IMG/VR virus record: IMGVR_UViG_3300044641_007991
Span: 1-64,000 of that record
Source: a virus
Reading direction: 5' to 3' (one strand)
Length of the DNA: 64,000 bases
Shown here piece after piece: positions 5,065 through 35,417 of the stretch. Position 1 is the stretch's first letter; each line of letters begins with the position of its first letter. The translations under genes were made by a program, and so were the position numbers. The notes under the pieces were generated by a model. The model searched no databases and was not told where the DNA came from. It saw nothing but the letters and a program-made list of their open reading frames with translations.

Positions 5065-5853
5065 TTAGTATTTAAGTTTAAGTGATTCTAAATATTCATC
5101 TGATTTCATATATGTGCCTTTTGGTAATTTTAACCCATTAGCTTTGTATAATTCTTTTATTTCTTGATAAATTGGTCTGGCTGCTTTCGCTTTTTGAAAT
5201 GTGCCATGTAATCCTGGATTATTATTTACAAAAATGTTTTTTTCATTTTTAATTTGCGTATAAACTGGATTTGTATCTCCTAGGAAAAAATGCGTTCCAT
5301 CTTTTATTTTTACTTTAGATGGATGATTATCATTTAAAAAATTATGCGTACCATCTTTAATCCTTTTTTGCGCTAATTCCCGTTGAAATTCTCCGCCAAT
5401 CCAATTATGTGTACCGTCTTCAAGTCTTTTTTGTTGAATTTTTCTTTGAAATTCTCCATCTCCCAAACAATGATGCGTTCCATCATCAACTCGTTTTCTT
5501 TGTATTTTTTTCTGTTGTTCGGAAGTTGTTCCGCCATCTAATCCATTCTCTAATTTTAAATTAGCCCATTCTTCAGATTCAATTATATTATATTTTTTTG
5601 ATAGGTTAATTGCTGTAGCAACTAATACATTAATATCATTAAATAATTTGCACCATAGTGTATCAACATTCGTACCGTGTTTTTTTAAATGAGCTAACCA
5701 ATAATCTCCAGATCCATTATATTTAAATGGGTTTTTAGAATTAGTTTTACATAAATATTTTAAACCTGTTGATTTATGTTGTTTTATCATTAAATATGTT
5801 GGTTTAAAATTTTTCATTTGTTTTTCTGTTATATAAATATTTTCGCTAGACAT
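5065..5853 (-). CDS. Free-standing GIY-YIG-like (Seg-type) homing endonuclease A
   Basis: N-terminal FKPTYLMIKQH..TGLKYLCKT...Y.GSG.YW, followed by DGTH(N/F)F repeats; paralogous to 13126, 17600 and 25015. Confidence 0.75.
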   Translation of the reverse strand: MSSENIYITEKQMKNFKPTYLMIKQHKSTGLKYLCKTNSKNPFKYNGSGDYWLAHLKKHGTNVDTLWCKLFNDINVLVATAINLSKKYNIIESEEWANLKLENGLDGGTTSEQQKKIQRKRVDDGTHHCLGDGEFQRKIQQKRLEDGTHNWIGGEFQRELAQKRIKDGTHNFLNDNHPSKVKIKDGTHFFLGDTNPVYTQIKNEKNIFVNNNPGLHGTFQKAKAARPIYQEIKELYKANGLKLPKGTYMKSDEYLESLKLKY

Positions 5854-5925
5854 TATTCCTCCTTATAATTATAATGTTTAGTGCTGGTGGGATGTGGGAG
5901 TCCGCGACCAGCTATGTATTTATTA
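5832..5925 (-). promoter_or_regulatory. Endonuclease leader element, copy A
   Basis: Minus strand: TAATAAATA..GCTGG-TCGCG-GA..TC-CCA-CCAGC-ACTAAACATT..GGAGG..ATG TCT AGC GAA AAT ATT TAT A. Confidence 0.85.
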
Positions 5926-6432
5926 TATTACTTTGTTTACTGCAATTGAATTTCCAGCGCCAATATTAGTAATATTAAGTCTTCCATATGGCCAAGGAGT
6001 TGTTACTGTTGTATATGCAGTATTTGAATTAGCAACGGTAATTGGTAATGTGGCTAATGAGATCCAATGTTGTTGATCTGTTGATACTTCAATAGCAACA
6101 TTAGAACTGCCTCCAGTTGAGAATGCTTGAAGAACTGCATTAGGTGGATTAGTAAATTTAAAAGAAAATACTTCTTGTGGACCAGTTAAACCTGCTCCAT
6201 AATTTGGAGTTTTAGCAACCACACCCCACCCATCATACTGAGCATTTGAAAAATCAATAACGGCATTATTTCCAGAAACACTAGAAACTTTAGCTGCATA
6301 TCTAGCATCATTGTCTGTAAAATATAGAATTAAATCATTAGTTGCTTGAAGATATGGATTTGATTCAAAATTAATTTGTGTGTTGGCATAATCATATACA
6401 CCATATAAAGTTCTTGAAATTTCTGTTATCAT
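5923..6432 (-). CDS. Hypothetical, probably structural protein
   Basis: 169-aa ORF in the late structural operon. Confidence 0.5.
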   Translation of the reverse strand: MITEISRTLYGVYDYANTQINFESNPYLQATNDLILYFTDNDARYAAKVSSVSGNNAVIDFSNAQYDGWGVVAKTPNYGAGLTGPQEVFSFKFTNPPNAVLQAFSTGGSSNVAIEVSTDQQHWISLATLPITVANSNTAYTTVTTPWPYGRLNITNIGAGNSIAVNKVI

Positions 6433-6452
6433 TTAAAGATTTCCTATATTAT

Positions 6453-7718
6453 TTAAGCTGTAGCTGTTTTAATTGTTGCAAATGCGATTGTAATTGCTTC
6501 TGTTAATGATGCATCCGTTACATTTCTAATATTGATTGATGCTGATCCAGCTGCACATCGAGCATTTAAAAGATAAGATCCTGCAGTACCACCAGATAAA
6601 TGGTTAAGAACTAATACATCACCAGCTTTTAATGTTGAATTAGTCATTGTAAATGATACTGTTGTATTTCCTGCTAAAACAGCATTATTTGTTGTTATTT
6701 GTCCAGATGTTTTATTTAAAACAACTGTTGTTGCTTTGTTTGTAAGCTGAGTAATTGTTCCACCAGAACCAGGACCATACCCTATACCACCAGATCCACC
6801 AACTAAAACACTACTAATACCAGTTGTGTAAATATTTGTGTTGCTGTATATTATATTTGAACTAGAAAATGTTAAATTAGCGCCTAATAACCATGTTTGA
6901 GCACTATTTAAATAAATCCCGCCATTATTTAAATACAAAGAATAATTATTACCTGAACCACTGGCGCCAGATGCTTCACCAAATAACCCGACATTATGGC
7001 CACCTGTGTGTATGTCATTAGAATATCCACGAACACCAATTGCAGATCCTTGATCAGCAACTCCTAAAACATGTGCTTCACCAATAACTCCAGCGCATCT
7101 AGTTGCTGGGCTTGTATAACCTTTTCCATATACCCCAACCCCGTACACGTTTGCATCAGTTGCGTGCGCCACACCTTCTGCCAATAATCCTATATTATGT
7201 ATTTCAGATCGTTGATTAGCAGTAGCAGTTGATGATATGGTGACAGATGAATTAGGGAATTGTGTAGTATTTGCACTTGTTCCAACAAATATAGTGTTAG
7301 CGTTAATTTGCGTAATTGCTTCTACAACATTTACCCCATCACAATAAATTATTTTTGTAGAATTATTTAAAATAGTAACACCAGTTCCAGCCGCAGTTTT
7401 GACAACAATATTTTGTCCACCTGTTGTTTTATTTGATATAATATAAATTTTAGTAGAAGTTGGGATAATTATATTTCGGGTTGCTGTTAATGAGACAGAA
7501 GATGTAATCGTTAGAATAGCTTTTCTGGCTTCATCATCGCTTGCGTTAGCTGTAGTTAATGTATAATCTGCGTTTAACATTGAAACAGTTGCCATGCCAG
7601 CAATTGCAGCTTCGATAACAATATCCAAATTATTATTGGTTTTTGTTCCCCAAGTTCCCTTATTTTCTTTATTTGCCATTAACTCCAAGCGGAGTAAATC
7701 AGAATATGTAGATGCCAT
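6453..7718 (-). CDS. Phage structural/tail-fibre-like protein
   Basis: N-terminus MASTYS..LRLEL...E..GTWG.KTN.NL is common in phage virion proteins; TATAAATA late promoter at 7750-7757 (minus). Confidence 0.6.
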   Translation of the reverse strand: MASTYSDLLRLELMANKENKGTWGTKTNNNLDIVIEAAIAGMATVSMLNADYTLTTANASDDEARKAILTITSSVSLTATRNIIIPTSTKIYIISNKTTGGQNIVVKTAAGTGVTILNNSTKIIYCDGVNVVEAITQINANTIFVGTSANTTQFPNSSVTISSTATANQRSEIHNIGLLAEGVAHATDANVYGVGVYGKGYTSPATRCAGVIGEAHVLGVADQGSAIGVRGYSNDIHTGGHNVGLFGEASGASGSGNNYSLYLNNGGIYLNSAQTWLLGANLTFSSSNIIYSNTNIYTTGISSVLVGGSGGIGYGPGSGGTITQLTNKATTVVLNKTSGQITTNNAVLAGNTTVSFTMTNSTLKAGDVLVLNHLSGGTAGSYLLNARCAAGSASINIRNVTDASLTEAITIAFATIKTATA

Positions 7719-7749: not shown

Positions 7750-7757
7750 TATTTATA
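7750..7757 (-). promoter_or_regulatory. T4-type late promoter TATAAATA
   Basis: Exact match upstream of structural gene 6453..7718. Confidence 0.7.
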
Positions 7758-8519: not shown

Positions 8520-9401
8520 ATGCTAGATATGTTAAAAGGGTTATTGGACGAAAAACTTGAAGAAGTTTCTAAATCATTATCTGATGTTGTAGTTCCATCA
8601 GTTACTGAACCAAAAATGTCACCAAAAGGCGATCCGAAAATTTTTGAGTTACAAAAAAAATTAATTGCTCGCGGTGCAAAAATCACTGCTGATGGTCTTG
8701 ATGGTCCAGCTACTAGAAAAGCTGTGAAAGATTTTCCAGACGGTACTGCAACGCCTCCTGTAGAAGAAAAACCTAAACAAATTTCTGCTGGTGTTGTGTC
8801 ATTAGGTACAGTTAAATCATTATTCCCTAAACATAAAGATCCTAGTGGATTAACTGATGCATTAAATGTTGTTCTCCCAAAATATGATATTACAGGAACT
8901 GAAAGAGTTGCGTGTTTCTTGGCACAATGCGGACACGAAAGTGCTGGGTTTACAGTTTTTATTGAAAACTTAAATTATTCAGCTGAAGGTTTATGTAAAG
9001 TTTGGCCAAAACGGTTTACTGCGGCAACCGCAGGTGCTTATAATCGCAATCCAGAAAAAATCGCTAATAAAGTCTATTGTGATCGTATGGGAAATGGTTC
9101 TGAAGCCAGCGGAGAGGGTTGGAAATATCGTGGTCGCGGTGCGATTCAGTTAACTGGAAAAGATAATTATACAAAATTCTCTAAATCTTGTGGGAAATCC
9201 CTAGACGAAACTGTTGCTTATTGTGAAACTTTAGAAGGTGCTATTGCTAGTGGCGCATTTTTCTGGAAAGAAAATAGATTAAATGAGAGATTTGTTGATA
9301 AAAAAGATTTTGTTGGATTAACTAAGGCGATTAATGGTGGAACAACAGGATTGACCGACCGTCAACATCATTATGATGCAGCTAAGAAATTGTTAGGATA
9401 A
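8520..9401 (+). CDS. Endolysin: peptidoglycan-binding domain plus glycoside hydrolase family 19
   Basis: ADGLDGPATRKAV (PG-binding); FLAQCGHESAGF, ENLNYS, YRGRGAIQLTG, TKAINGG (GH19). Confidence 0.9.
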   Translation: MLDMLKGLLDEKLEEVSKSLSDVVVPSVTEPKMSPKGDPKIFELQKKLIARGAKITADGLDGPATRKAVKDFPDGTATPPVEEKPKQISAGVVSLGTVKSLFPKHKDPSGLTDALNVVLPKYDITGTERVACFLAQCGHESAGFTVFIENLNYSAEGLCKVWPKRFTAATAGAYNRNPEKIANKVYCDRMGNGSEASGEGWKYRGRGAIQLTGKDNYTKFSKSCGKSLDETVAYCETLEGAIASGAFFWKENRLNERFVDKKDFVGLTKAINGGTTGLTDRQHHYDAAKKLLG

Positions 9402-9404
9402 TCC

Positions 9405-9695
9405 ATGGATATCGGTATCCCTAATTTTTTTGATCTTGTAGAACAGTGTGGTGCACCAATAGCCATTGCTGTTGTTTGTGGTTGGTTTTTAATGCAGGCA
9501 ATTGAATTGGTTTTAGGTAGTGTTGTTAAAACAATTAAAAAATTAACAGGATTACTACGCTCAATGGATGGTCGCGTGCGTCAAATGAATGTTGATGTAC
9601 TAGATTTAGATAAATTAGTGTCAAAATCTTTAATGGTTGATCCGTTACCTAAAAAGGTACACCATGAAGTTGCTGCAGAAATGAACAAGGATTAA
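9405..9695 (+). CDS. Small membrane protein, holin-like (paralogue 1)
   Basis: One N-terminal TM segment plus amphipathic tail; next to the endolysin. Confidence 0.5.
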   Translation: MDIGIPNFFDLVEQCGAPIAIAVVCGWFLMQAIELVLGSVVKTIKKLTGLLRSMDGRVRQMNVDVLDLDKLVSKSLMVDPLPKKVHHEVAAEMNKD

Positions 9696-9696
9696 T

Positions 9697-9981
9697 ATGA
9701 ATCAAGCATATATTGGGTTTTTTTCTGATGTTATTATTCCTATTATTGCTAGTAGTGCACTAGGAAGTTTTATTTTCACAGCGTTAAAATTTGTTTTAGG
9801 TGATGTTATTACATCAGTTAGAACATTGGCGTCAATCGTTATGGCGCTGGAAAATAGAGTTAAAAATACTTCTAACGAATTAATTAAAATTGACGTTACT
9901 ATATCTGCTGTTTTAGGATTACGTCCAGATCTAGAACGTATTTCAAGATCAGATGGGCAACGAGACGCTCGCAGAGATTAG
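9697..9981 (+). CDS. Small membrane protein, holin-like (paralogue 2)
   Basis: Shares the L..RV....N....(L/I)D..(V/I)S..L pattern with 9405 and 10932. Confidence 0.5.
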   Translation: MNQAYIGFFSDVIIPIIASSALGSFIFTALKFVLGDVITSVRTLASIVMALENRVKNTSNELIKIDVTISAVLGLRPDLERISRSDGQRDARRD

Positions 9982-9986
9982 GGTTT

Positions 9987-10086
9987 TATAAATAAAGTAT
10001 AGGTCGCGAGTTCCGAGGCTCCACCTATTCTAAACATTCTTACAATCGTTCAAGGAGAACAATAATGCTCAGCAAAAATATTTATA
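9987..10086 (+). promoter_or_regulatory. Endonuclease leader element, copy B
   Basis: TATAAATA..ATAGG-TCGCG-AG..CT-CCA-CCTAT-TCTAAACATT..GGAG..ATG CTC AGC AAA AAT ATT TAT A. Confidence 0.85.
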
Positions 10087-10919
10087 TGCCATATTTTTAT
10101 ATTATCCGACATAAAGAAACGGGTAAACAATATGCTGGATCTAGATGGGCAAAAGGTTGTCACCCATCAGAATTTATGCAAAAAGGCGGATATACTACAT
10201 CATCTATAATAATTAATTCTATAATAGAACGGGAAGGCGTTGATGTATTTGAAATAATAGAAATTATAACTTTAGATGAACTTATAATTCCGTTTAGCGT
10301 ACAATCTGTATATCAATATGAAACATGGTTTTTAAACGAATATAATTGTGCAACTTCGCCTGATTGGTATAATAAACATAATAATGAGGGAATGGTATTT
10401 GGAACCTCAGAATTTTATGACAAATCTAAAACAACATGTTTAGAAAAATATGGTTACGAATATTGTTTACAAGCTCCAGAAATACAGGAAAAGTCTAAAC
10501 AAACTTTATTAGATAATTATGGAGTAGATTCTCCTGCAAAAAATGAAGAAATTTTAAATAGAATGAAAGACACCAATATAAAAAAATATGGTGTAGAATT
10601 TCCCTTACAATCTGACGTAATAAAAGAAAATACTAAATTAACTAATTTAGAAAGATATGGTTATGAATATGGGTTGCAATCGCCGATAATAAAAGAAAAA
10701 TCGAAACAGACTTGTTTGGAAGTATATGGAGTAGACCATCCATCAAAAGATCCAGAAATAAAAGAACGAATATTTAATACATTTAAAAAAACTAATTTAG
10801 AAAAATATGGCGTGGAATTTCATGTTAATATACAAGTTACTTGTCCATATTGTAATAAAATTGGCAATAAACCAATTATGATGCGATGGCATTTTAATAA
10901 TTGTAAATTAAAAACATAA
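10065..10919 (+). CDS. Free-standing GIY-YIG-like endonuclease B with LEKYG repeats and C-terminal CPYC/WHFNNC motif
   Basis: YFYIIRHKETGKQYAGSR N-terminus; repeated T(C/N)LEKYG(V/Y)E units. Confidence 0.7.
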   Translation: MLSKNIYMPYFYIIRHKETGKQYAGSRWAKGCHPSEFMQKGGYTTSSIIINSIIEREGVDVFEIIEIITLDELIIPFSVQSVYQYETWFLNEYNCATSPDWYNKHNNEGMVFGTSEFYDKSKTTCLEKYGYEYCLQAPEIQEKSKQTLLDNYGVDSPAKNEEILNRMKDTNIKKYGVEFPLQSDVIKENTKLTNLERYGYEYGLQSPIIKEKSKQTCLEVYGVDHPSKDPEIKERIFNTFKKTNLEKYGVEFHVNIQVTCPYCNKIGNKPIMMRWHFNNCKLKT

Positions 10920-10931
10920 TATGGACATAAT

Positions 10932-11228
10932 ATGGACATTACAGAAATAGGCGAGTTAATCTCAAAATACGGTTTTCCGACAGTTTCATCATTTTTTATG
11001 CTCAGAATGGTTCGTTACGTTTGGGATTTTACAATCAATGAGATTAACCCAGTTTTAGGTGAAGCTAATAAAGAGTTAATTGCTCTTATTGATAGAATAC
11101 GTCTTTGTGATAACGATCTTTTGAGATTAACTGCTAAATTAAATACAGTTCTTCAAATTCGTGAAAAGGCTTTATTACAACAAGATCAAGAAGAACCGCC
11201 AAAACCAAAACGTCCAAGATCAGGATAA
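10932..11228 (+). CDS. Small membrane protein, holin-like (paralogue 3)
   Basis: ISKYGFP TM segment, then LIDRIRLCDNDLLRL. Confidence 0.5.
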   Translation: MDITEIGELISKYGFPTVSSFFMLRMVRYVWDFTINEINPVLGEANKELIALIDRIRLCDNDLLRLTAKLNTVLQIREKALLQQDQEEPPKPKRPRSG

Positions 11229-11232
11229 TTAT

Positions 11233-11679
11233 ATGAGAAAACACCTATTAAAGTTGTTTTTTATTATGTGTTTTTCAATTGATGTTAACGCCTCTAATCT
11301 AGTTTATGAATTCAATAATCCATCATTTTCGGGAAATGGTTGGTCAACTCAAGTAATAACTCTAGAACAAATAGAATCCGCTCGAAAGCAAAAAATAAAA
11401 GATGATGCAGCAGCTGGCATAGCCAAAGCTGCAGCTGATGCTAAAAATAGCAATTTATCTAAATTTTTAGTTAATGTTGAGTCCAGGATTTACGCTCAAT
11501 TATCCAAACAATTAGCTGATCAAATGTTTACTGATAGTGGAGCAACATCAGGTACAATGGATTTTCAGGGAACATCTATTAATTGGGTTAAAGGTGCAAC
11601 TGATGTATCGTTAACAATTACAGAATCTAATGGTAATACCACTGATATTATAGTTCCTATTGGTCAGTTTGGATTTTAA
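11233..11679 (+). CDS. csgF: Curli assembly protein CsgF-like
   Basis: Signal peptide then LVYEFNNPSFSGNG (CsgF N-terminal NPSFGG motif); directly upstream of csgG; ATG at 11233 preferred over the track start. Confidence 0.75.
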   Translation: MRKHLLKLFFIMCFSIDVNASNLVYEFNNPSFSGNGWSTQVITLEQIESARKQKIKDDAAAGIAKAAADAKNSNLSKFLVNVESRIYAQLSKQLADQMFTDSGATSGTMDFQGTSINWVKGATDVSLTITESNGNTTDIIVPIGQFGF

Positions 11680-11680
11680 T

Positions 11681-12457
11681 ATGAAATATATGATTTTATC
11701 CATATTATTGCTTACAGGGTGTTCTCAAATTGCTTTGGATATTATGAGAGAAGATCCCGTTCCTATAACATCAAGAATCACATTAAGTAATAAATTACCG
11801 GAATTGGAAGGACCAGCAATACCAATTTCTATTTACGATTTTACTGATAAAACTGGGCAACGTAAACCATCAGACAAATTAGCTCAATTATCAACAGCTG
11901 TTCCACAGGGAGCAGAATCGTTTGTTATCAAAGCATTACAAGATTCAAAAAATTGGTTTAAGGTTGTTGAACGAGTTGGTTTAGATAATTTAGTTAAAGA
12001 GCGACAATTAATTCGCAATCAACGAGATGTTTACGAAGGAAAAGAATCTAAACCATTACCTCCATTATTAGTTAGTGGATTAATGGTAACAGGTAGCATT
12101 AGTGGATACGATTCTGATATTCGTACGGGTGGAATAGGGTTAAGGTTATTTAAACTTGGATTCACCCAAGAATATAGAGTTGATCAAATTACTATCTCGA
12201 TGAGATTAATTTCTGTTTCATCTGGGGAAGTATTAGTATCAGTGGCAACAACTAAAACGATTTATAGTTTTGCTAGTGATGCTGGTGTTATGATGTTTAT
12301 TGGAACTGGTAATGTAACTGCTCTAGAAGCAGAAGTTGGAAATAGCGTCAACGAACCTATTACTGAAGGTGTTAGAGTTGCTATTGAAGACAGTGTTTAT
12401 TCTATGATAATTGAAGGGGAAAAACGAGGTCTTTGGAAATTTAAAAAGGAAAAATAG
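11681..12457 (+). CDS. csgG: Curli secretion channel CsgG-like lipoprotein
   Basis: Lipobox LTGC; F.DKTGQRKP, STAVPQGA, WFKVVERVGLDNLVKERQLIR. Confidence 0.9.
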   Translation: MKYMILSILLLTGCSQIALDIMREDPVPITSRITLSNKLPELEGPAIPISIYDFTDKTGQRKPSDKLAQLSTAVPQGAESFVIKALQDSKNWFKVVERVGLDNLVKERQLIRNQRDVYEGKESKPLPPLLVSGLMVTGSISGYDSDIRTGGIGLRLFKLGFTQEYRVDQITISMRLISVSSGEVLVSVATTKTIYSFASDAGVMMFIGTGNVTALEAEVGNSVNEPITEGVRVAIEDSVYSMIIEGEKRGLWKFKKEK

Positions 12458-13048
12458 ATGAAAATCTTACAAACATATTTGATTATGTTTGTTATGCTCT
12501 TTGCTACTACTACATTTGCTAATGATATTTTTATTGAACAGGTTGGGAGTTTATCTGATATTACATTAACACAACAGGGTGTTGATAATCGTATTGGGAC
12601 AGCTCTTAATCCTTCATTTTTTGGTGGAAGTAGTGATGTGTCGACTATTGAACAAATTGGTTCTAGAAATGAATTAGATTTGATCGTAAATGGTGATAAT
12701 ACAACTGTTACATTAAGTACAACAGGTAATGATAATAAAGAAACAATTAATTGTGGAGTCAAAACTGCTGTGACATGTAACAATACTACAATCAATCATA
12801 CTATATCGGGTGATAATAATACTATTGACACTACAATTGGTGCTACAACTAATAGTAAAATGACTGTAACTGGTGATAGTAATGCTATTACTCATACAAG
12901 TACAAGTTCTGGTATTGTATCTGCTGATTTAACTTTAACTGGTAACAGTAATACAATTGATTTAACTCAAAGCGGAACTTTGGATAAGAGTATAAAAATT
13001 GAAAGTACTGGTTCTAACAATAATATTACTGTTAATCAATCCAATTAA
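12458..13048 (+). CDS. Curlin-like (CsgA/CsgB-type) secreted repeat protein
   Basis: Signal peptide plus repeated Q-x-G-x-x-N / G-D-x-N beta-arcade units; follows csgG. Confidence 0.65.
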   Translation: MKILQTYLIMFVMLFATTTFANDIFIEQVGSLSDITLTQQGVDNRIGTALNPSFFGGSSDVSTIEQIGSRNELDLIVNGDNTTVTLSTTGNDNKETINCGVKTAVTCNNTTINHTISGDNNTIDTTIGATTNSKMTVTGDSNAITHTSTSSGIVSADLTLTGNSNTIDLTQSGTLDKSIKIESTGSNNNITVNQSN

Positions 13049-13146
13049 TATAAATAGACGGTAGTCGCGGATCCCCCGATCCCACTACCTCTAAACATTT
13101 TTACACTTAATCAAGAGGATTAACAATGTCCAGCGCAAATATTTAT
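13049..13146 (+). promoter_or_regulatory. Endonuclease leader element, copy C
   Basis: TATAAATA..GGTAG-TCGCG-GATC..GATC-CCA-CTACC-TCTAAACATT..GAGG..ATG TCC AGC GCA AAT ATT TAT A. Confidence 0.85.
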
Positions 13147-13974
13147 ATTATCACAGAACAACAGCGTTTAAATTTTAAACCAACATATCTTTATATCAAA
13201 CAACATTCAGTTACTGGATTAAAATATTTCGGAAAAACGATTAAATCTGATCCAATAAAATATAAAGGATCTGGTATTAGGTGGTCAAAACATATAAAAA
13301 AACACGGAACTAAATTTGTTACCACTTTATGGTATAAATTATATACAGATATAGATGAATTATTATCCGTTGCTATAACTCTATCTGAAATTTATGATAT
13401 CGTGGATTCTGATTTTTGGGCGAATATTGTGCCAGAAAATGGGTTAACTGGCGGAGATTCTGAAACTGTTAGAAGGCAACAAAAAGAGAAAGTTGCAGAA
13501 GGAACCCATAATTTTTTAGGTGGGGAGATTGGGGGGAGTTTTTCAAGAGAACGAGTTTTAAATGGAACCCATAATTTTTTAGGTCCAGAATCAAATAGAA
13601 AGCGAATAGCTGATGGAACACATCCATTTTTAAATTCCGATTTTCAAAGAAATGTTCAATTAAAATTATTATCTGAAGGGACTCATATATTCCTTAATCC
13701 AGAATTTCGAGAAAATCAATCTAATAGAGTTAAAGAAATGAATGCAACAAACGTCTCTAATGGTACGCACCCTTTTTTAGGACCGGAGTTGAATAAAAAA
13801 CGAATAGCTGATGGGACACATCCTTTACTCACTTTATCCAAACAAAGATCTAATAGAAAAATATATCTTGACATAAAAGAATTAGCTAAAACATTAAAGA
13901 TTAAATTACCACCTGGGCTAAATATGAAATCTGATGAATTTTTATTGAAATTTAAAGACAAATATTTGACTTAA
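13126..13974 (+). CDS. Free-standing GIY-YIG-like homing endonuclease C
   Basis: FKPTYLYIKQHSVTGLKYFGKT...YKGSG; GTH(N/P)FL repeats; close paralogue of 5065..5853. Confidence 0.75.
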   Translation: MSSANIYIITEQQRLNFKPTYLYIKQHSVTGLKYFGKTIKSDPIKYKGSGIRWSKHIKKHGTKFVTTLWYKLYTDIDELLSVAITLSEIYDIVDSDFWANIVPENGLTGGDSETVRRQQKEKVAEGTHNFLGGEIGGSFSRERVLNGTHNFLGPESNRKRIADGTHPFLNSDFQRNVQLKLLSEGTHIFLNPEFRENQSNRVKEMNATNVSNGTHPFLGPELNKKRIADGTHPLLTLSKQRSNRKIYLDIKELAKTLKIKLPPGLNMKSDEFLLKFKDKYLT

Positions 13975-13975
13975 T

Positions 13976-15034
13976 ATGCAATTTTGTGTATTTGTATTTT
14001 TAACATTTATATCAGTGAATGTTTTATCTGATATAGGGAAAATCGAATACCAAACAGGATTAGCTGAAATTAATAGGAATAATAGATCCTATGCAACTAA
14101 AGAGCAATTTCCAGTAGAATCTAAAGATTCTATTATTACAGCTAATTCTAAACTTAATATTAAATTTGAAGATAATACACGAGTTGCTGTGTCTGAACAA
14201 AGTAAACTTATTATTGATGATTTTATATACGACCCTAAAAAAACAGCAGGGAAATTAGCTTTAAAGTTTGCTTTAGGAACTGTTAGATATACTTCAGGAC
14301 AAATTGCTAAACATAATCCTCAAACAGTATCTATTAATACGCCGACTTCCGTAATTTCAATTCGGGGCACTGATTTTAGCGCCACTGTTGATGAATTAGG
14401 TAAAAGTACAATTATTTTATTACCCAGTTGTGATATTACTGGTTGTGTTACAGGTGCTATTGAAGTTTCTACTGATGCAGGGTTTGTTTTAATGAACCAA
14501 GCATTCCAGACAACAGTTGTATCAGATAAAAATTCTGCTCCAACAAAACCTGTTATCATATCAATCGATGCAGCTAATATAGATAATACATTAATTGTAT
14601 CTCCTCCTGTAAAATCTACAGATAATTCAACAAAAGTAGAACAAATAAAAACTGATTTAGATATTAATTTTCTTGATCAAGATTTTTTATCATACAAACA
14701 ATTAGATTTAAATGTTTTAGATTTAAGCAGCGAATTAGATAAAAATTATCTTGAGGTTGCTTTAATGGAAGATATGTTGAACGCTACTAATCAAGTCGGC
14801 AGCGATTTATTAGCTGTTGGGGTAATGTTGCCTGGATATAATGAGGCTAGTAATTTAAAATATTATATTAATTCTATTGAACAATTAGTATTAAACAAAT
14901 CATCAAAACACCAATTTGAATTAAAAATTGATAAAAATTCAGATGCAACATTAAATTTAAATCAAGAAGGTGTTCCATTATCTCAAAGAATTAATATGGG
15001 TGTTGCAACAAAAATTACTATTATTCAAAAATAA
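13976..15034 (+). CDS. FecR-domain protein
   Basis: Signal peptide; I.F.D.T...SEQSKLIIDDFIYDP, TPTSVISIRGTDF, GAIEV. Confidence 0.8.
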   Translation: MQFCVFVFLTFISVNVLSDIGKIEYQTGLAEINRNNRSYATKEQFPVESKDSIITANSKLNIKFEDNTRVAVSEQSKLIIDDFIYDPKKTAGKLALKFALGTVRYTSGQIAKHNPQTVSINTPTSVISIRGTDFSATVDELGKSTIILLPSCDITGCVTGAIEVSTDAGFVLMNQAFQTTVVSDKNSAPTKPVIISIDAANIDNTLIVSPPVKSTDNSTKVEQIKTDLDINFLDQDFLSYKQLDLNVLDLSSELDKNYLEVALMEDMLNATNQVGSDLLAVGVMLPGYNEASNLKYYINSIEQLVLNKSSKHQFELKIDKNSDATLNLNQEGVPLSQRINMGVATKITIIQK

Positions 15035-15065
15035 ATAGTTTTTTTAAATATAACGTGAGGTAATC

Positions 15066-17524: not shown

Positions 17525-17621
17525 ATAATGTGTAGATCGCGATACTACTAATATCCATCTACTCTAAACATATTCTTAACACTATTACGAGGAACAGTTA
17601 TGTCCAGCGAAAATATTTATA
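17520..17621 (+). promoter_or_regulatory. Endonuclease leader element, copy D
   Basis: TATAAATA (contains the cyclase stop codon)..GTAGA-TCGCG-ATA..TAT-CCA-TCTAC-TCTAAACAT..GAGG..ATG TCC AGC GAA AAT ATT TAT A. Confidence 0.85.
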
Positions 17622-18795: not shown

Positions 18796-18799
18796 TCTT

Positions 18800-24882: not shown

Positions 24883-24913
24883 AATAAATTTCCAATTTAA
24901 AGCTGTATATTGA

Positions 24914-25036
24914 TAATAAATAGTTGACCGTTTAAATGAATATTAAACGATGCTTATCGCGGAATAGCAGTTCCCATAAGCACTAATCATCAACTATCAA
25001 ATATAGGAATCGATATGACCAGCAATAATATTTATA
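24914..25036 (+). promoter_or_regulatory. Endonuclease leader element, copy E
   Basis: TAATAAATA..extra hairpin..TGCTTA-TCGCG-GAA..TTC-CCA-TAAGCA-CTAATCAT..AGGA..ATG ACC AGC AAT AAT ATT TAT A. Confidence 0.82.
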
Positions 25037-26103: not shown

Positions 26104-26819
26104 GCGTCTTTATTGATACACCAAATTAAATGATTTCCAGTTAAAGGTTTGGTGTATTCTCCGTTTTCCATTTTAAGTTTATACCATTTATGGTGTATAG
26201 TTTGTTTATTAACAAATTTATCTAATACCGTATTATATTCAACTTTATTTGTATGGTGATTAAATGATTTAACTTTAATATCTTTAATATCAGATTCAAT
26301 TAATTGTTTTATCGTCATATTACCCTCTGTTGTATTAAGAACCCAATCTTCCGATAAACACTGAAAAATAGCTGGATATTTAATATTCTTTTCGGTTTTC
26401 TCATTGAATTTGCCGCACAATAAAACTGGATATTCTGGAATTAAATCTTTCCAAATTTTATTTACAGTTTTTGCGCTAACGCCACATTTTAAATCGCGTT
26501 CGATAATACGATATAAAACTTCTTGATCATCTACTGGCAATTTACCTAGTATCATAGATACATATTCGATAGCTTCATTACCAGTAAGCTCTCTATTACA
26601 AATATTAACTTTAATGCTGGATAAAGCGCCAATCAAATCTACGGTAATACCGTTATTTGGAGAAACTGGAGGACGTTTTTTAATCCAATATTTAATTCTT
26701 GGGTTATAAGCAAATAAAAATACAGCTCGCACAACCGGATTATCAACATATGATTTTAATAGAGCGATTTTGTCGTTAGTGCCTGATGTTGCTGCTAGTT
26801 GATTCAATAAATTTAACAT
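26049..26819 (-). CDS. lig: ATP-dependent DNA ligase, N-terminal half followed by a split-intein N part (26049..26360)
   Basis: T4 gp30-like N-domain (RDLKCGVS.KTVNKIW, YPAIFQ), then CLSEDW...LTGNHLIW...RVDEL intein blocks A/B. Confidence 0.9.
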   Translation of the reverse strand: MLNLLNQLAATSGTNDKIALLKSYVDNPVVRAVFLFAYNPRIKYWIKKRPPVSPNNGITVDLIGALSSIKVNICNRELTGNEAIEYVSMILGKLPVDDQEVLYRIIERDLKCGVSAKTVNKIWKDLIPEYPVLLCGKFNEKTEKNIKYPAIFQCLSEDWVLNTTEGNMTIKQLIESDIKDIKVKSFNHHTNKVEYNTVLDKFVNKQTIHHKWYKLKMENGEYTKPLTGNHLIWCINKDAYIRVDELSSSDIILVDV

Positions 26820-30293: not shown

Positions 30294-31997
30294 TTAAACC
30301 TTGTCAGTAATAGCTCTAATTTCCGCCAATGTTGTTGTTTTAACTAATTGACTATCTTTAAATACAGTTTCTAAACAACCGTGGCGTTCTTGATCAACAG
30401 ATACTTGATCAACTAATTTATAAACACCATCTGTTTGGGTAACCATTAATAACCCTTTAGCCGATTTCTTAATACCATTATCAGTTTTTGGATCTTTAAA
30501 GATTTCTACACCTGCACCATTAATCTCAGCATAGGTAGATTTCATGGCCATACCGTGAGTATCTCTGGTAACATATTGGAAACTGAATGAACCAATACCC
30601 AGCACAACATTACTTGATGCAAAACCTTTTTGTTCTAATCTACGGAAAATTTCCTCAGCACGTTTGTATGTGATAGAATCACCGTAAATAGCACCAATAT
30701 GAGTATCTAATACTTTGTAACCGTTTTCAGTTAAAGTGCCACCGAAAATATCCCATAAACATTCAATTAAACCTTTTTGTTCAGGCGAAATCTCAACTTC
30801 TTCAAATTCAAGCACCCTACTGTTATCAACATAATAGTATTGTTTATCATAACGATTCCACTCAATTTCTACTTTAGCTTTATAATATTTGTCGCCAGCT
30901 TTATAAATTCTGGTTACAATATCTTCACCGCATTCGCCATGAGGAGTATCATTACGAATTTCGGATTCTATATCGTTTAACATATAGTTTTTAATCGAAT
31001 CCAAACAGTCAATAGCAACATATTTTGCCGGCACAACTGGAATATCAATACCACACAGAATTTCAACTGGATCACCAGAATCTGGACGAATAATAACACG
31101 ACCATCTCTAGCCATAATATCAGATTTTAATCGCACCAAATAATCGGTAATAACTTGCCAGAAATCCCATGTATCACTAACAATAGATACCATACCGCTT
31201 GGATAAATTTCGGTAATTAATCGTTTATAAGTATCAAATTCATCTTCTTTAGTACCGCTGCACATAACACTGTGTTCTGTAGCAGGAACCGAAACGCCAA
31301 CAATTTCTGTATCGCTATCAGCAAAATAATAATCCTCAGCCAAATCAATTGCTGGGATATTATCTGTACCATAAGCGCCAGCTGCTAATACAGCAAAACC
31401 AGACGATGCAGCTGCGTGGCGACCTGCCATACCGCGAAAACCAAAATCATGGAACTGATACCGAACAAACTCTTTATCGGCTCCAGTAAGCTCTGCATAA
31501 CGCAAACCCAATTTCTTGTAAGCCATATAAGTTGTGGCTGATGTAATTGGTTGCCATAATTCAGCTGATAATACCGATTCTAACATATTAGTTACCCAGA
31601 AAAATTCTGGTTTAGTATTAACCACAGTTAACATTGGAACGCCATATGGAACCATAGAACCTTCTGGTAAGGCTTTAATCTCAATTGGTAAATAACCCAA
31701 TTTATGCAGCGCACGAATATGATCTACATTAACCTTATAACCAACGATATTTGAAACGCGACGTTGATATGAATTAACCACGCGATCAATTGATCGAGTA
31801 AAGAATGAATAATCCCAATCTTCAATCAAGTAATCTAAGATAAAATGTTGTAGACCAACAAAACAAATACCATCGGTTGGTACGTTTTGATTTTTACCTG
31901 AACGAGCGGTAAAGTTAGAATAAATTTTAGTTGTACCAGGAGCATACTGATCTTTATGGTTTACTTTATAGCTGTCTTTTTGGTGTAATGCGCTCAT
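30294..31997 (-). CDS. nadV: Nicotinamide phosphoribosyltransferase-like (NAMPT; Namat of NARP1)
   Basis: DSYK..H..QY, HDFGFRG, SVPATEHSVM, SIVSDTWD, IRPDSGDP, GDSIT, KKSAKG. Confidence 0.92.
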   Translation of the reverse strand: MSALHQKDSYKVNHKDQYAPGTTKIYSNFTARSGKNQNVPTDGICFVGLQHFILDYLIEDWDYSFFTRSIDRVVNSYQRRVSNIVGYKVNVDHIRALHKLGYLPIEIKALPEGSMVPYGVPMLTVVNTKPEFFWVTNMLESVLSAELWQPITSATTYMAYKKLGLRYAELTGADKEFVRYQFHDFGFRGMAGRHAAASSGFAVLAAGAYGTDNIPAIDLAEDYYFADSDTEIVGVSVPATEHSVMCSGTKEDEFDTYKRLITEIYPSGMVSIVSDTWDFWQVITDYLVRLKSDIMARDGRVIIRPDSGDPVEILCGIDIPVVPAKYVAIDCLDSIKNYMLNDIESEIRNDTPHGECGEDIVTRIYKAGDKYYKAKVEIEWNRYDKQYYYVDNSRVLEFEEVEISPEQKGLIECLWDIFGGTLTENGYKVLDTHIGAIYGDSITYKRAEEIFRRLEQKGFASSNVVLGIGSFSFQYVTRDTHGMAMKSTYAEINGAGVEIFKDPKTDNGIKKSAKGLLMVTQTDGVYKLVDQVSVDQERHGCLETVFKDSQLVKTTTLAEIRAITDKV

Positions 31998-32066
31998 TTC
32001 AAAATTCCTATCAAGTTAAGGTATAGAGTTATTGTACTCTAATTCAAGTCAAATGTCAAGCACTTT

Positions 32067-32303
32067 TTACAGATGCTTTAAAAATTGCATTTCTTGTTCT
32101 GTTGGGAAAAATTTATGGATAATTTCTACTCTAGGATCTGTTTGTTCAAAGGAATCTGTGGTGTAGATAGCATCAACACCACCTTCAAATAATGGATCTA
32201 ATCCACGCGAGAAAATACCATGAGTAACAAATAATCCAATTTTTCCTGCACCACGGTCTATTAACACTTTTGCCAATTCAGTGAAAGTAGCTCCGCCATC
32301 AGA
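32067..32303 (-). pseudogene. Displaced 3' fragment of the Prs-like gene
   Basis: Reads SDGGATFTELAKVLIDRGAGKIGLFVTHGIF...YTTDSFEQTDPRV, a diverged duplicate of the C-terminus of 33369..34211. Confidence 0.85.
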
Positions 32304-32314
32304 AAAGTAAATTT

Positions 32315-32413
32315 TATAAATATATTATGCTAGTCGCGGTGCTACCAACACCCACTAGCTCTAAACATTTTCATTCAGATAAGGATTACCTATGTTCAGC
32401 ACAGATATTTATA
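32315..32413 (+). promoter_or_regulatory. Endonuclease leader element, copy F
   Basis: TATAAATA..GCTAG-TCGCG-GTG..CAC-CCA-CTAGC-TCTAAACATT..AAGGA..ATG TTC AGC ACA GAT ATT TAT A. Confidence 0.85.
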
Positions 32414-33372
32414 CCATACTATCATCAAAACCTCATAATCAACATTATTTAAAACGATACGTTAAATTCATAGAATATTGTAACAATATTAATGCGCATT
32501 ATACTGGTTATGTAGAATATCATCACATATTACCAAAAGCTAAGACGCTATTCCCTGAATATAAAAATTTTAAACAAAACCCCTGGAATAAAATAAAACT
32601 AACTCCAAGGCAACACTTTATAGCTCATTGGATGTTGTGGAAAATATTCGGCGGTTTTATGGCTTACGCATTTTCTATAATGCGTAGAAAATCTAAAGTT
32701 CAATCAGAAAGATATTTTCGATTAAATAGCAAATCGTATGGAGAATTGAAAATAGCAGTTAGCAAATCTCAATCAACCAGAATCATATCAAAAAAAACGA
32801 TAGAGAAAATGAAAAAATCTCAAAAAAATAAACCTAAAATTCGATGCCCTCATTGCGATAAAATCGGGGATGAATCTAACATGAGAAGGTGGCATTTCGA
32901 TAATTGTAAAGTTTTTACTGATAAATCTGTACACGAAGTAAAACAAAAATCTGATATTGTAACTTGCCCTCATTGTGGAAAAACCGGAAAAGAACAAGGT
33001 ATGTTGGCTAACCATTTCTCAAATTGTAGTGTTATTAGAGGAGATTACCGAAAAGTAAAAGATAAGATAACATGTCCACATTGTAAAAAAGAAGGCGCGA
33101 ACACATATGGGTTTAAGGTTTATCATTTCGATAATTGTAAAATTTTAACGGGAAAGATTATACGCGCAGTAGAATATGATTTATCTATAGTTAAGTGTCC
33201 GCATTGCGATAAAGAAGGGACAATGCACGGAATGAAATCAAGTCATTTCGAACACTGTCCTACACTCAAACCAGAATTACCGAAAATACAATGCCCGCAC
33301 TGCAAAAAAGAAGGTAATAACAACGGCTATTTTAAATCTCATCATTTTGATAAGTGTAAACAAAAAATTTAA
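32392..33372 (+). CDS. HNH-like (Mob-type) homing endonuclease F with five CPHC zinc-ribbon repeats
   Basis: EYHHILPK...LTPRQHFIAHWML; (CPHC.K.G......HF..C) x5. Confidence 0.78.
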   Translation: MFSTDIYTILSSKPHNQHYLKRYVKFIEYCNNINAHYTGYVEYHHILPKAKTLFPEYKNFKQNPWNKIKLTPRQHFIAHWMLWKIFGGFMAYAFSIMRRKSKVQSERYFRLNSKSYGELKIAVSKSQSTRIISKKTIEKMKKSQKNKPKIRCPHCDKIGDESNMRRWHFDNCKVFTDKSVHEVKQKSDIVTCPHCGKTGKEQGMLANHFSNCSVIRGDYRKVKDKITCPHCKKEGANTYGFKVYHFDNCKILTGKIIRAVEYDLSIVKCPHCDKEGTMHGMKSSHFEHCPTLKPELPKIQCPHCKKEGNNNGYFKSHHFDKCKQKI

Positions 33373-34211
33373 TTAAAAAAGTTATAAATTACCTGAACTC
33401 TTGGATCTGTTTGTTCAAACGAATCTGTGGTGTAGATGTGATCAATATTATCGTTAAATAATACATCTACACCATAATCAAAAATTCCATGGGTAATAAA
33501 CAACCCAATTTTACCTGCACCCCTAGCTTTTAATTCCCTAGCCAATAATCGGAATGTCATACCGCCTGAACAAATATCATCGACGATCAAACAATCTGCG
33601 CCATCCAAGTTATCCGATAACAATTCTGTTTTAGTAATGTTACCAGTTGCAGGATCTCGTACTTTAAGAGCCTGCAGAACATCAATTTTTGATGATAAAT
33701 TATACCCTCGAGCAAAATCAACTGCTTTTTTACTGGCACCTGCATCCGGAGCAACGATATAACTGTAATTAGCTAATCCAAGAATTCCTAATCTAGAAGC
33801 CAATGGGAATGCAAAAGTAGATTGAGCTCGTTCTACAACATTATCTAATAATGCAGTAGCAACTGTGCTATGAGCATCTGTTACATGTACTCGAGAATAA
33901 CCCTGGGAATTAATTAAATTTGCAAAAATTTTAAGTGAAAATGAATCGCCTAGATTACAAACTCTATCCTGACGAGCATATGGAATATAAGGTAACACCA
34001 ATTCAATTGTTTTAATTCCCAGTCGTTTTAATGCATCAGTTACTAACAACAACCGCATTAATTCGCTAGAACTATCAATTCTTGCTAGAATTTCTACTGA
34101 GGAACTAACAATAGCTGGCGAGGGTAATACAACATTAACATGTTCTTCTCCACCAGAGAACGTATGAAATTTAATTTCTACAAAATTTTCTTGCTGTTTT
34201 ACAATAATCAT
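33369..34211 (-). CDS. prs: Ribose-phosphate pyrophosphokinase-like (Adps of NARP1)
   Basis: FSGGE, PYIPYARQDR, DAHS, APDAGA, IVDDICSGG. Confidence 0.9.
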   Translation of the reverse strand: MIIVKQQENFVEIKFHTFSGGEEHVNVVLPSPAIVSSSVEILARIDSSSELMRLLLVTDALKRLGIKTIELVLPYIPYARQDRVCNLGDSFSLKIFANLINSQGYSRVHVTDAHSTVATALLDNVVERAQSTFAFPLASRLGILGLANYSYIVAPDAGASKKAVDFARGYNLSSKIDVLQALKVRDPATGNITKTELLSDNLDGADCLIVDDICSGGMTFRLLARELKARGAGKIGLFITHGIFDYGVDVLFNDNIDHIYTTDSFEQTDPRVQVIYNFFN

Positions 34212-34213
34212 TA

Positions 34214-35278
34214 TTAATCCTCGAATTTCATTAAAAATTTATTAGAAATTGCTTTAAAGTGGACGCGTGTATCGGTAATACATTTAAATACCAAACCTTC
34301 TCGTTCAGTTTTAACATTTAATTCACTTTTGCTTTCAGCTAATTGTAATAGACTATCAATAGTTTGATTTTCAAGAGTCATTGTACCTAGAACTGGAACG
34401 TGTTTCAAACCTAATTTCTCACACAATTCTAATCGTTCTGCTGATGATAGATATTCACCCTTATCAATATCATAAATGGTAAACACATAGAAATCAATAT
34501 CATTTAATTTATATTTGTTACCTTGAATTCCCACGCCACACAATTCACCTTGAATTGCAATATTTCTATCTAGAGCAGTTAATTTTTCTTCAAGAGTATA
34601 TTTTCTAGCAGCACCCCAAAAAGAATTACCTTCAGTTTCTTTTAATTGTAGGTTACGAGAACAAACGCCAAATTCAGCAATAAAATCATCTGCGTCAGTC
34701 ATAGCATTATTTCTAAAGAATACAGTCATAGATGAGCCATCTAATTTTTCAGAAATTTCCCATTGATCATCCGATTGTGACCATTTACCTAAATTTTTTG
34801 ATAAATTTTGAACACGTTCTTCGTCAGTTTTTGGAATAAAACTTGGGAAATTACCTTTAGCTTGACCAGCTAATTGTGCTGGCAATGGTCGTTCGTATTT
34901 CAAGATACCCAATAATTCAGTAACGTCGTCATCTTCATTCCAATCGGATGATGTTGCTTCGCCAACATAGTTTGACATCACAACACCAAATGGTAACAAC
35001 AAACCTTGGCTACAAGTTCCGCGCAATTTAATTGTACGCAATCGTTCACCTTTAACACCTTCAAACTCTCTTGGTTCTTTACCATTGGATAAGAATGGAG
35101 CTAACTCGTGCGGGATCCATGAATCAATAGAAAAATATACTGCTAATTGTCCAGTATTAAATTCACCCAATTTAGTTACAACTTTCCACCCACCAATAGT
35201 ACAAATATCCAATGCATCAGCATTAGGATGTTTCTCAACATTATCAATTCTAGCAATCCACGCCATTTTTCTACTCAT
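34214..35278 (-). CDS. RNA ligase, DRB0094/Rnl2-like family
   Basis: HPNADAL, RTIKLRG..SQG, FPSFIPKTDEER, EKLDGSS, IQGE, REGLV, FKAISN. Confidence 0.88.
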   Translation of the reverse strand: MSRKMAWIARIDNVEKHPNADALDICTIGGWKVVTKLGEFNTGQLAVYFSIDSWIPHELAPFLSNGKEPREFEGVKGERLRTIKLRGTCSQGLLLPFGVVMSNYVGEATSSDWNEDDDVTELLGILKYERPLPAQLAGQAKGNFPSFIPKTDEERVQNLSKNLGKWSQSDDQWEISEKLDGSSMTVFFRNNAMTDADDFIAEFGVCSRNLQLKETEGNSFWGAARKYTLEEKLTALDRNIAIQGELCGVGIQGNKYKLNDIDFYVFTIYDIDKGEYLSSAERLELCEKLGLKHVPVLGTMTLENQTIDSLLQLAESKSELNVKTEREGLVFKCITDTRVHFKAISNKFLMKFED

Positions 35279-35304
35279 AATACAACACCTCAAGTTTCAA
35301 TTTA

Positions 35305-35417
35305 TATAAATAAAGTATAGATTAAAAATGTCTATACAACACAAAAAAAGCCAATCGCGATACTGGTAATATCCATTGGCACTAATACTAATCAGGAGTA
35401 TCAGCATGAATATTTAT
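35305..35417 (+). promoter_or_regulatory. Endonuclease leader element, copy G
   Basis: TATAAATA..extra hairpin..GCCAA-TCGCG-ATA..TAT-CCA-TTGGC-ACTAATAC..GGAG..TCAGC ATG AAT ATT TAT. Confidence 0.8.

Follow-up and report, generated by a model that had tools for sequence, protein, structure and literature searches.

A two-hairpin cassette between facing late-promoter boxes precedes homing endonuclease genes of uncultured phages and may specify a cis-antisense small RNA

Why should endonuclease genes of unrelated families, dispersed along one viral contig, all begin behind the same structured leader? The question is raised by a 64,000-nucleotide stretch of viral DNA (positions 1 to 64,000 of IMG/VR record IMGVR_UViG_3300044641_007991, referred to here as the window), which has a G+C content of 34% and derives from a 74,280-bp contig of an uncultured T4-like phage. 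An initial annotation of this DNA had noted that its seven free-standing endonuclease genes share a hairpin leader. Here, we describe the element as a cassette of two covarying hairpins set between two late-promoter boxes that face each other, and we weigh what such a cassette might do. The reading that we favor, with moderate confidence, is that it specifies a cis-antisense small RNA which, like RNA-OUT of IS10, would restrain the nuclease encoded downstream.

To locate the leader, we used a strict pattern (a 5-bp stem1, TCGCG, 12 to 13 nt, CCA, and the complement stem1'). Exactly seven sites were found in the window, each before one of the seven endonuclease genes: 5883-5912 on the minus strand and 9999-10028, 13060-13089, 17532-17562, 24952-24981, 32329-32359, and 35350-35380 on the plus strand. 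The endonuclease start lies 25 to 70 nt from this hairpin (hairpin 1) in all seven copies, and the seven stem1 sequences all differ, each being paired at five of five positions. The looser motif TCGCG-N4-14-CCA occurs 17 times, against 4.9 expected. A covariance model of hairpin 1 plus CTAA (designated R1) scored the seven copies at 43 to 56 bits, clear of the rest of the window, where the next best site reached 15.6 bits. An eighth copy, again with a different stem1, lies beyond the window at contig positions 70021-70061, before a GIY-YIG-like open reading frame (ORF) of 313 amino acids. The proteins behind the seven window copies are four Seg-like paralogues, one GIY-YIG protein with DUF7487, one HNH-like protein with zinc ribbons, and one LEM-3-like GIY-YIG protein. 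These results bear out what the initial annotation had claimed, namely, that one leader precedes all seven endonuclease genes and no other genes in the window, that stem1 differs in every copy yet always pairs, that stem2 covaries as well (its pairs were recovered exactly as listed there), and that the leader is independent of protein family. The cassette precedes GIY-YIG, HNH, and NUMOD3 types.

The same element is found far beyond this contig. A pattern scan of IMG/VR that specified TATAAATA, TCGCG, CCA, and CTAA, and placed no demand on pairing, returned at least 119 loci; stem1 was paired at five of five positions in 107 of the 124 matches listed. A second scan, demanding neither promoter box, returned at least 120 loci, with stem1 paired in 166 of the 176 unique matches listed. 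The matches listed precede mainly endonuclease-type ORFs: Pfam assigned 106 downstream ORFs to NUMOD3 (39), HNH types (18, including HNH 11, HNH_3 4, and HNH_5 2), GIY-YIG types (11, comprising SegE_GIY-YIG 7 and GIY-YIG 4), and DUF7487 (4), and I-TevI and I-HmuI DNA-binding modules were also among the matches. Genomes carry 8 to 11 copies, and hundreds of copies are spread over lake, marine, and wastewater viromes. One record (L050/L189) is a complete jumbo-phage genome of 360,683 bp with terminal repeats and 11 R1 matches on both strands, and it offers a good reference genome for the cassette. Bacterial genome collections gave 78 pattern matches, of which 11 look real and the rest chance; all 11 lie on short contigs of metagenome-assembled genomes and are probably misbinned phage DNA.

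As the initial annotation had supposed, the leader corresponds to no described family in Rfam. A scan of the window against Rfam 15 at gathering thresholds matched only a transfer-messenger RNA (tmRNA), and a permissive scan (E ≤ 10) of positions 9950-13160, which hold two leaders, gave no match on either. In blastn searches with one cassette, no match was found among 50,697 phage records (cultured phages); tblastn of endonuclease 3 against cultured phages gave distant matches only. R1 searches of S-PM2 (NC_006820, E ≤ 10), pelagiphage HTVC008M, and Vibrio phage SRILMA gave no match.

Read along the gene's strand, the cassette consists of a late-promoter box, about 5 nt, hairpin 1 (stem1, UCGCG, stem2, loop, stem2', CCA, stem1'), N-CUAA, hairpin 2, (N)CAGC, about 5 nt, and a TATTTAT box. 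Hairpin 2 is a covarying stem between CTAA and CAGC that contains half of GGAG and has the Shine-Dalgarno (SD) sequence or the AUG inside it; the SD lies in the apical, loop-side half. The TATTTAT box is a second late-promoter box, on the opposite strand and within the first codons of the nuclease gene. Two forms can be distinguished. In the common short form (168 copies), ATG follows CAGC; in the long form (16 copies, including six of those in the window), ATG precedes CAGC and falls within the 3' arm of hairpin 2. The common form spans about 80 nt, while six of the seven window copies measure 92 to 122 nt from box to box and the short-form copy 7 measures 114 nt. Because ATG can fall on either side of CAGC, the architecture is conserved and the start codon is mobile. 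All three codon phases are represented among the TATTTAT boxes (145, 23, and 16 copies), and the box is present in GIY-YIG, HNH, and zinc-finger ORFs, so the Met-x-Ile-Tyr start shared by these proteins reflects a constraint on the nucleotides rather than on the protein.

The initial annotation had therefore described the element in part. It saw a single hairpin in the mRNA leader, which gives way here to a two-hairpin module whose variation fits the strand opposite the gene and which is bracketed by facing late boxes; the second covarying hairpin, the identity of TATTTATA as the reverse complement of the late box, and the opposite-strand wobble pairs had been overlooked. Its statement that the hairpin leaves out the ribosome-binding site (RBS) is true of hairpin 1 but not of hairpin 2, which holds the SD or AUG. 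The downstream motif AGC NNN RATATTTAT that it recorded is real, with its position relative to ATG shifted in the copy at 35406.

To determine which strand folds, we examined pairing in several samples: 109 unique copies selected by pattern without a demand for pairing, 80 further copies selected without either box (both sets drawn from the matches listed), and an alignment of 93 box-to-box cassettes read on the opposite strand (A5). On the gene's strand, stem1 of the 109 copies has 527 Watson-Crick pairs, no G.U, and 17 A.C; in the 80 box-free copies the counts are 380, 3, and 17. Each A.C counted on the gene's strand corresponds to a G.U when the opposite strand is read. Hairpin 2 behaves likewise: on the gene's strand, CUA[A] and [C]AGC meet in an invariant A.C, A.C recurs at the two following pairs in 20 and 35 of 94 copies, respectively, and G.U is almost absent, while on the opposite strand these become wobble pairs within a continuous 8-bp helix. 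RNAalifold folded A5 into two hairpins with 19 pairs, 13 of which show compensatory change. Over the same columns (1,761 cells), the opposite strand is 97.9% paired with 180 G.U, compared with 88.2% and 9 G.U on the gene's strand. Shuffled controls for A5 gave 77.7% pairing and 102 double changes, compared with 97.9% and 386 in the alignment, and slid partners paired at 28 to 50%.

By minimum free energy (MFE), the antisense fold is the more stable in 91 of 94 relatives (means, −18.8 antisense and −13.4 sense) and in all seven window copies. A deamination bias acting on the nontemplate strand would be expected to give the opposite asymmetry. Wobble asymmetry, pairing, and compensatory changes together point to the antisense strand as the structured molecule under selection. 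The top nine column pairs by mutual information are all helix pairs; a pseudoknot or tertiary covariation was sought among the top pairs and rejected, nothing appearing there beyond the two hairpins. A likeness to the preQ1-I riboswitch (stem-UCGC...-stem-tail) was also set aside, as the cassette has a single nucleotide between stem1' and CUAA, a helix within the loop, and no Rfam match.

The two boxes share the consensus NATAAATA and face each other. An antisense NATAAATA box matching at six or more of seven positions is present in 74 of the 80 copies that were chosen regardless of boxes. A spacing of 5 nt separates box and structure for 59 of 75 sense boxes and, measured to CAGC, for 54 of 74 antisense boxes. 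In T4-type late promoters the box lies at about −13 to −6; the 5-nt spacing has this geometry and would make the first base of stem1 the sense +1 and the G of GCUG the antisense +1. In both boxes, the position that varies is the first A of ATAAATA (sense, A 45, C 19, G 5; antisense, A 37, G 17, C 3, T 2), and in the box-free sample none of 66 cells off consensus in one box is compensated in the other. RNAfold, given the segment by itself, draws a helix between the boxes in six of seven window copies. A closing helix of TATAAATA with TATTTATA, which would form a three-way junction masking the AUG on read-through transcripts, was considered and rejected, since it has no covarying extension and none of the 66 departures is compensated. 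The boxes thus appear to be two signals of one kind rather than the arms of a helix.

Use of the octamer elsewhere in the window agrees with this assignment. Exact TATAAATA octamers occur 13 times, against about 17 expected from base composition, and 11 of the 13 are cassette boxes; outside cassettes the octamer is strongly avoided (2 seen versus about 17 expected). The two others, at 7750-7757 and 48098-48105 (both on the minus strand), are found 32 nt upstream of a tail-fibre-like gene (6453-7718) and 38 nt upstream of a baseplate/tail-like gene (47046-48059), respectively. Because cassettes and these two gene-upstream sites account for all 13 occurrences, TATAAATA is a used and otherwise avoided signal.

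We propose the following model. The cassette would be a portable control element belonging to the mobile endonuclease unit. Its left late box would drive the nuclease mRNA from a predicted +1 at the first base of hairpin 1, and its right late box would start an opposite-strand RNA with the G of GCUG, a sequence complementary to the invariant CAGC. The 5' hairpin of this antisense RNA would contain a sequence complementary to the SD and, in long-form copies, to the AUG as well; the 3' hairpin, which is hairpin 1 in reverse, would present a UGG/CGCGA core with two bulged G's, followed by a U-rich, terminator-like tail. For CopA, Hjalt and Wagner (1995) are reported to have found that bulged nucleotides in antisense hairpins speed pairing and protect from RNase III. 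The predicted product is a small RNA of about 70 to 90 nt, fully complementary to the translation-initiation region in the 5' untranslated region of the late nuclease mRNA, which could block ribosome binding as RNA-OUT does on RNA-IN in IS10. The two facing promoters, about 80 bp apart, may also interfere with each other, and the joint effect would be a low dose of a potentially harmful nuclease. In the short form, the AUG lies 0 to 3 nt beyond the predicted antisense start; in the long form, it falls inside the overlap. Among the roles proposed for the leader at the outset, a small cognate RNA is nearest to the evidence, while nothing supports an end for single-stranded DNA recognition or binding by each nuclease; the DNA-binding domains of the nucleases also differ among copies.

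What would end the antisense RNA? The sequence following antisense hairpin 1 is the complement of the spacer and sense box (e.g., ACUUUAUUUAUA) and contains, by our own count, a mean of 6 U in 10 nt. Where the sense box is displaced, a U-run directly adjoins antisense hairpin 1: U7 in copy 7, U6 in copy 8, and U5 (AUUUUUG) in relatives L153 and L167. Termination after antisense hairpin 1 is therefore plausible, to judge from these features.

Several observations weigh against this model. Energy z-scores relative to shuffles fail to separate the strands (means, −2.4 antisense and −1.9 sense), which leaves the wobble asymmetry as the basis for assigning the strand. A scan for terminator and promoter consensus did not flag the antisense hairpin, which is bulged and has an only moderately U-rich tail. 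No transcript was seen: the two wastewater runs labelled RNA-Seq/METAGENOMIC contain 29% of the sampled words but consist of contigs, which show no starts, ends, or strand. Base pairing alone leaves the invariance of UGG/CGCGA, GCUG, and UUAG unexplained. The antisense RNAs of copies 5 and 7 face essential-looking host genes (the C-terminal half of a DNA ligase and an RNA ligase, respectively) that start 12 to 33 nt past the sense box; with such a gene lying just downstream, efficient termination would be costly. Finally, about 70% of classifiable cassettes are antiparallel to their upstream neighbor (61 versus 24), a bias that fits a promoter directed outward at least as well as a restraint on the nuclease.

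This last bias raises the strongest alternative, in which the backward late box mainly restores transcription of a host gene or fragment that has been cut off by an antiparallel insertion, the hairpins form a stabilizing 5' leader, and repression of the nuclease is incidental. Besides the opposite orientation of the upstream neighbor in 61 of 85 classifiable cassettes, copies 5, 6, and 7 face the DNA ligase C-terminal half, a NAMPT operon, and the RNA ligase, with the close spacing given above for copies 5 and 7, and the wobble asymmetry and box data fit this explanation as well as they fit an antisense restraint. Nevertheless, four of eight contig cassettes and a further 24 elsewhere run in the same direction as the upstream gene; there, the transcript would be merely antisense to that gene, yet box and fold are intact. 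A hairpin followed by a U-run immediately after the start also resembles a small-RNA gene rather than a leader, and the SD-complementary loop would have no role. We therefore consider this alternative possible but unlikely as the main function. The two roles are compatible, and a cassette that restrains its nuclease by antisense RNA may also serve as an outward promoter for the neighboring gene.

The hairpins could instead act in the nuclease mRNA itself, as a read-through mask closed by pairing of the late box with TATTTAT, as a regulator site, or as a 5' stabilizer. A mask of this kind has precedent, since late promoters within masking hairpins are established for I-TevI, I-TevII, I-TevIII, segB, and Aeh1 mobE (PMC2988022), and in the cassette 88% of cells still pair on the gene's strand, hairpin 2 still contains half of the SD or the AUG, and RNAfold closes the box-box helix in six of seven isolated window segments. 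This account is improbable, however, because G.U pairs number 180 on the opposite strand and 9 on the gene's strand, where hairpin 2 in addition carries the invariant A.C mismatch and frequent further mismatches. The box-box helix lacks a covarying extension and a single compensated departure in 66. Unlike in the T4 masks, moreover, late transcription is predicted to begin with hairpin 1 (+1 at its first base), and a late mRNA would keep both hairpins.

Extrusion of the inverted repeats as a single-stranded DNA hairpin or cruciform for mobility, intercassette recombination, or replication, with the boxes as terminal inverted repeats, would suit a mobile cassette whose left edge coincides with a box, wobbles that form in DNA (as G.T) as well, and eight distinct stem1 sequences in one genome that would limit ectopic recombination, but it is very improbable, as homing by free-standing endonucleases needs no hairpin in cis (T4 seg and mob genes; PMC2988022), a constant 5 nt between each box and the structure is promoter-to-start geometry, and the SD in the apical half of hairpin 2 and the U-run after hairpin 1 are RNA features.

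We next describe the individual copies; unless stated otherwise, cassettes and endonuclease genes lie on the plus strand and the predicted antisense RNAs on the minus strand. Cassette 1 is inverted and extends from box to box over 5832-5924 (−), with the sense box AATAAATA at 5917-5924, hairpin 1 at 5883-5912, a hairpin 2 that includes the AUG, TAGC as the CAGC equivalent at 5845-5848, and the antisense box at 5832-5839, which reads TATAAATA on the plus strand. Its predicted antisense RNA (5845-5924, +; +1 at 5845) would consist of two hairpins and a U-rich tail over the sense-box complement (MFE, −24.2; sense, −17.8), and the gene, 5065-5853 (−), encodes a Seg-like GIY-YIG paralogue of 262 amino acids. 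Cassette 2 (9987-10086; sense box, 9987-9994; hairpin 1, 9999-10028; CAGC, 10070-10073; antisense box, 10079-10086) has a predicted antisense RNA at 9987-10073 (MFE, −20.9; sense, −12.3) and precedes gene 2 (10065-10919), which encodes a GIY-YIG-like N terminus and DUF7487.

Cassette 3 (13049-13147; sense box, 13049-13056; hairpin 1, 13060-13089; CAGC, 13131-13134; antisense box, 13140-13147) has a predicted antisense RNA at 13049-13134 (MFE, −22.6; sense, −18.3) and precedes gene 3 (13126-13974), which encodes a Seg-like GIY-YIG paralogue. Cassette 4 (17520-17621; sense box, 17520-17527; hairpin 1, 17532-17562; CAGC, 17605-17608; antisense box, 17614-17621) has a predicted antisense RNA at 17520-17608 (MFE, −17.4; sense, −10.3) and precedes gene 4 (17600-18511), which encodes a Seg-like GIY-YIG protein with NUMOD3. 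In a wastewater contig (runs X1/X2), the shared CTAAACAT... part of cassette 4 is joined at 17561 to another hairpin 1, with the stem GTTAG/CTAAC and a different loop; close relatives thus carry other hairpin variants at the cassette 4 site. In one wastewater contig, moreover, position 17612 is linked back to 13139, the junction spanning the nearly identical beginnings of endonucleases 4 and 3.

Cassette 5 (24915-25036) has the sense box AATAAATA at 24915-24922, an extra hairpin at 24929-24949, hairpin 1 at 24952-24981, CAGC at 25020-25023, and the antisense box at 25029-25036. Only the structured part of its predicted antisense RNA is given (24952-25023), as the 3' end is uncertain; the RNA is directed into the DNA ligase C-terminal half (23932-24882, −). 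Gene 5 (25015-26103), encoding a Seg-like GIY-YIG paralogue, is antiparallel to the split DNA ligase. Cassette 6 (32315-32413; sense box, 32315-32322; hairpin 1, 32329-32359; CAGC, 32397-32400; antisense box, 32406-32413) has a predicted antisense RNA at 32315-32400 (MFE, −21.5; sense, −16.0) and precedes gene 6 (32392-33372), which encodes an HNH-like N terminus and several zinc ribbons. Cassette 7, of the short form (35305-35418), has its sense box at 35305-35312, an extra hairpin at 35315-35337, an A7 run at 35343-35349, hairpin 1 at 35350-35380, a hairpin 2 that includes the SD, CAGC at 35402-35405 with ATG after it, and the antisense box TATTTATT at 35411-35418. In its predicted antisense RNA (35340-35405), hairpin 1 is followed directly by U7 (MFE, −17.3; sense, −11.7); gene 7 (35406-36626) encodes a LEM-3-like GIY-YIG protein. 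An extra small hairpin thus lies between sense box and hairpin 1 in cassettes 5 and 7, where the sense box is displaced, and both of these cassettes are antiparallel insertions adjoining the start of a host gene.

Does the cassette travel with its gene? Two relatives that are 97 to 98% identical on the left flank, L298 and L299, are without the segment corresponding to window positions 13051-14135. Compared with these relatives, the insertion has its left end at 13050, inside the sense box of cassette 3. On the right side of the comparison, a diverged version with a similar encoded N terminus takes the place of the first 160 nt of the downstream FecR-like gene. Because relatives lacking endonuclease 3 lack the cassette too, the cassette is part of the mobile unit, and the pattern at 13050-14136 looks like homing with a co-conversion footprint. 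In the relatives, the curlin-repeat and FecR-like genes overlap by about 50 nt (L298 2508-2621 and L299 1642-1755); in the window, the N-terminal signal-peptide region of the FecR-like protein is diverged.

Two cassettes lie in or near interrupted genes. The ATP-dependent DNA ligase is split (23932-26819) into an N-terminal half at 26049-26819 (−) and a C-terminal half at 23932-24882 (−), and a match to the C terminus of an intein splicing domain covers the first 38 residues of the latter. Between the halves, in antiparallel orientation, lies endonuclease 5, which shares 55 nt with the N-terminal half. A gene for a CHASE2 and class III cyclase protein (15776-17524) stops where the sense box of cassette 4 lies, its cyclase domain being matched only to profile position 156 of 183, and a short ORF (18504-18770) follows endonuclease 4; the cyclase region (15776-18770) may be a second fractured gene.

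The surrounding genes include unusual cargo at 8520-20419 and 30294-38242: an endolysin, a curlin-repeat protein, a FecR-like protein, the CHASE2 cyclase, GroEL, NAMPT and ribose-phosphate pyrophosphokinase (nicotinamide adenine dinucleotide salvage), and RNA ligase; a second RNA-ligase gene there has kinase-like (ATPase/polynucleotide kinase) PHROG matches. The window also encodes a permuted, two-piece tmRNA of the alphaproteobacterial type at 21293-21683 (−), matched in Rfam by tmRNA_permuted (85.5 bits) and alpha_tmRNA (65.2 bits) and not called by ARAGORN. This permuted tmRNA hints at an alphaproteobacterial host.

How does the cassette compare with known systems? In IS10/Tn10, RNA-OUT pairs with the translation-initiation region of RNA-IN and blocks ribosome binding (PMC5006887). 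The likeness lies in a selfish-element gene, a short structured antisense RNA over the translation-initiation region, and a promoter facing the gene's own, the antisense RNA being predicted here from sequence. The systems differ in that IS10 encodes a transposase, whereas the cassettes belong to homing endonucleases of lytic T4-like phages, have late-type promoters on both sides, and form two hairpins with invariant cores, with an overlap of about 56 to 77 nt as opposed to 35 nt in IS10. For T4 I-TevI, I-TevII, I-TevIII, and segB and Aeh1 mobE, a late promoter within a hairpin that masks translation has been described (PMC2988022). These, too, are homing endonucleases of T4-type phages with a TATAAATA late promoter beside a structure involving the RBS and with expression confined to late infection. 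Their promoter, however, lies inside the hairpin, and late transcripts lose one arm, while the predicted start of the cassette precedes both hairpins; in addition, the cassette boxes show no helix covariation and the fold is that of the opposite strand, and the T4 structures are idiosyncratic to each gene, whereas the cassette is shared and portable.

In cyanophage S-PM2, which is T4-like, the antisense RNA CfrI, of about 225 nt, runs opposite psbA and a free-standing homing endonuclease gene (Millard et al. 2010, per PMC2984593) and has been seen experimentally, but S-PM2 has no R1 match, and CfrI is longer and is not a portable multicopy cassette. In ocean metagenomes, Dassa et al. (2009; PMC2677866) described "fractured genes" whose endonucleases are preceded by hairpins with TATAAATA and two complementary motifs; they read these hairpins as translational attenuators on the sense strand and mentioned neither a second promoter nor an antisense fold. 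There, as here, free-standing GIY-YIG and other endonucleases of uncultured phages, some of them between split-intein halves, follow a conserved hairpin with a T4 late box, and two of the window cassettes likewise lie in fractured genes (DNA ligase and cyclase). The hairpins of Dassa et al. may be the same element.

The class of mechanism that we propose, antisense control, is known, and the cassette itself has no match in Rfam or in cultured phages. We found no paper describing an antisense module for these homing endonuclease genes. The PeSL modules that Arbiol et al. are said to have described in 2010 are short, conserved promoter-plus-stem-loop elements of T4-type phages that reportedly move together with variable genes and may help to shuffle modules. 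PeSL is reportedly a terminator-like stem-loop with an early promoter and flanks miscellaneous ORFs; the cassette differs in having two late boxes, two covarying hairpins, and a specific association with endonucleases.

The invariant parts of the cassette invite a broader proposal, which we regard as quite unlikely in its full form. The cassettes would constitute a new and very widespread family of phage small RNAs in which the invariant nonhelical core (the bulged-G UGG/CGCGA, the 5' GCUG, and UUAG) is a handle for a phage or host factor, one regulator or trans-acting small RNAs govern all homing endonucleases of a genome, and the variable stems confer gene specificity and prevent recombination between copies.

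Homing endonucleases are the chief selfish elements found in T4-like phages, and their restraint is known only from a few T-even hairpins described gene by gene. The cassette looks like a general, portable form of such restraint: a module of about 80 bases that combines promoter, RBS context, and, probably, an antisense leash. In metagenomic phage contigs, it has a practical use as a marker of fractured genes and of inserted free-standing endonucleases. Should the antisense RNA exist, it would explain why unrelated nucleases start with Met-x-Ile-Tyr, since these codons would be a promoter on the other strand. It would also belong to one of the most abundant families of phage small RNAs and would be a phage counterpart of IS10 RNA-OUT.

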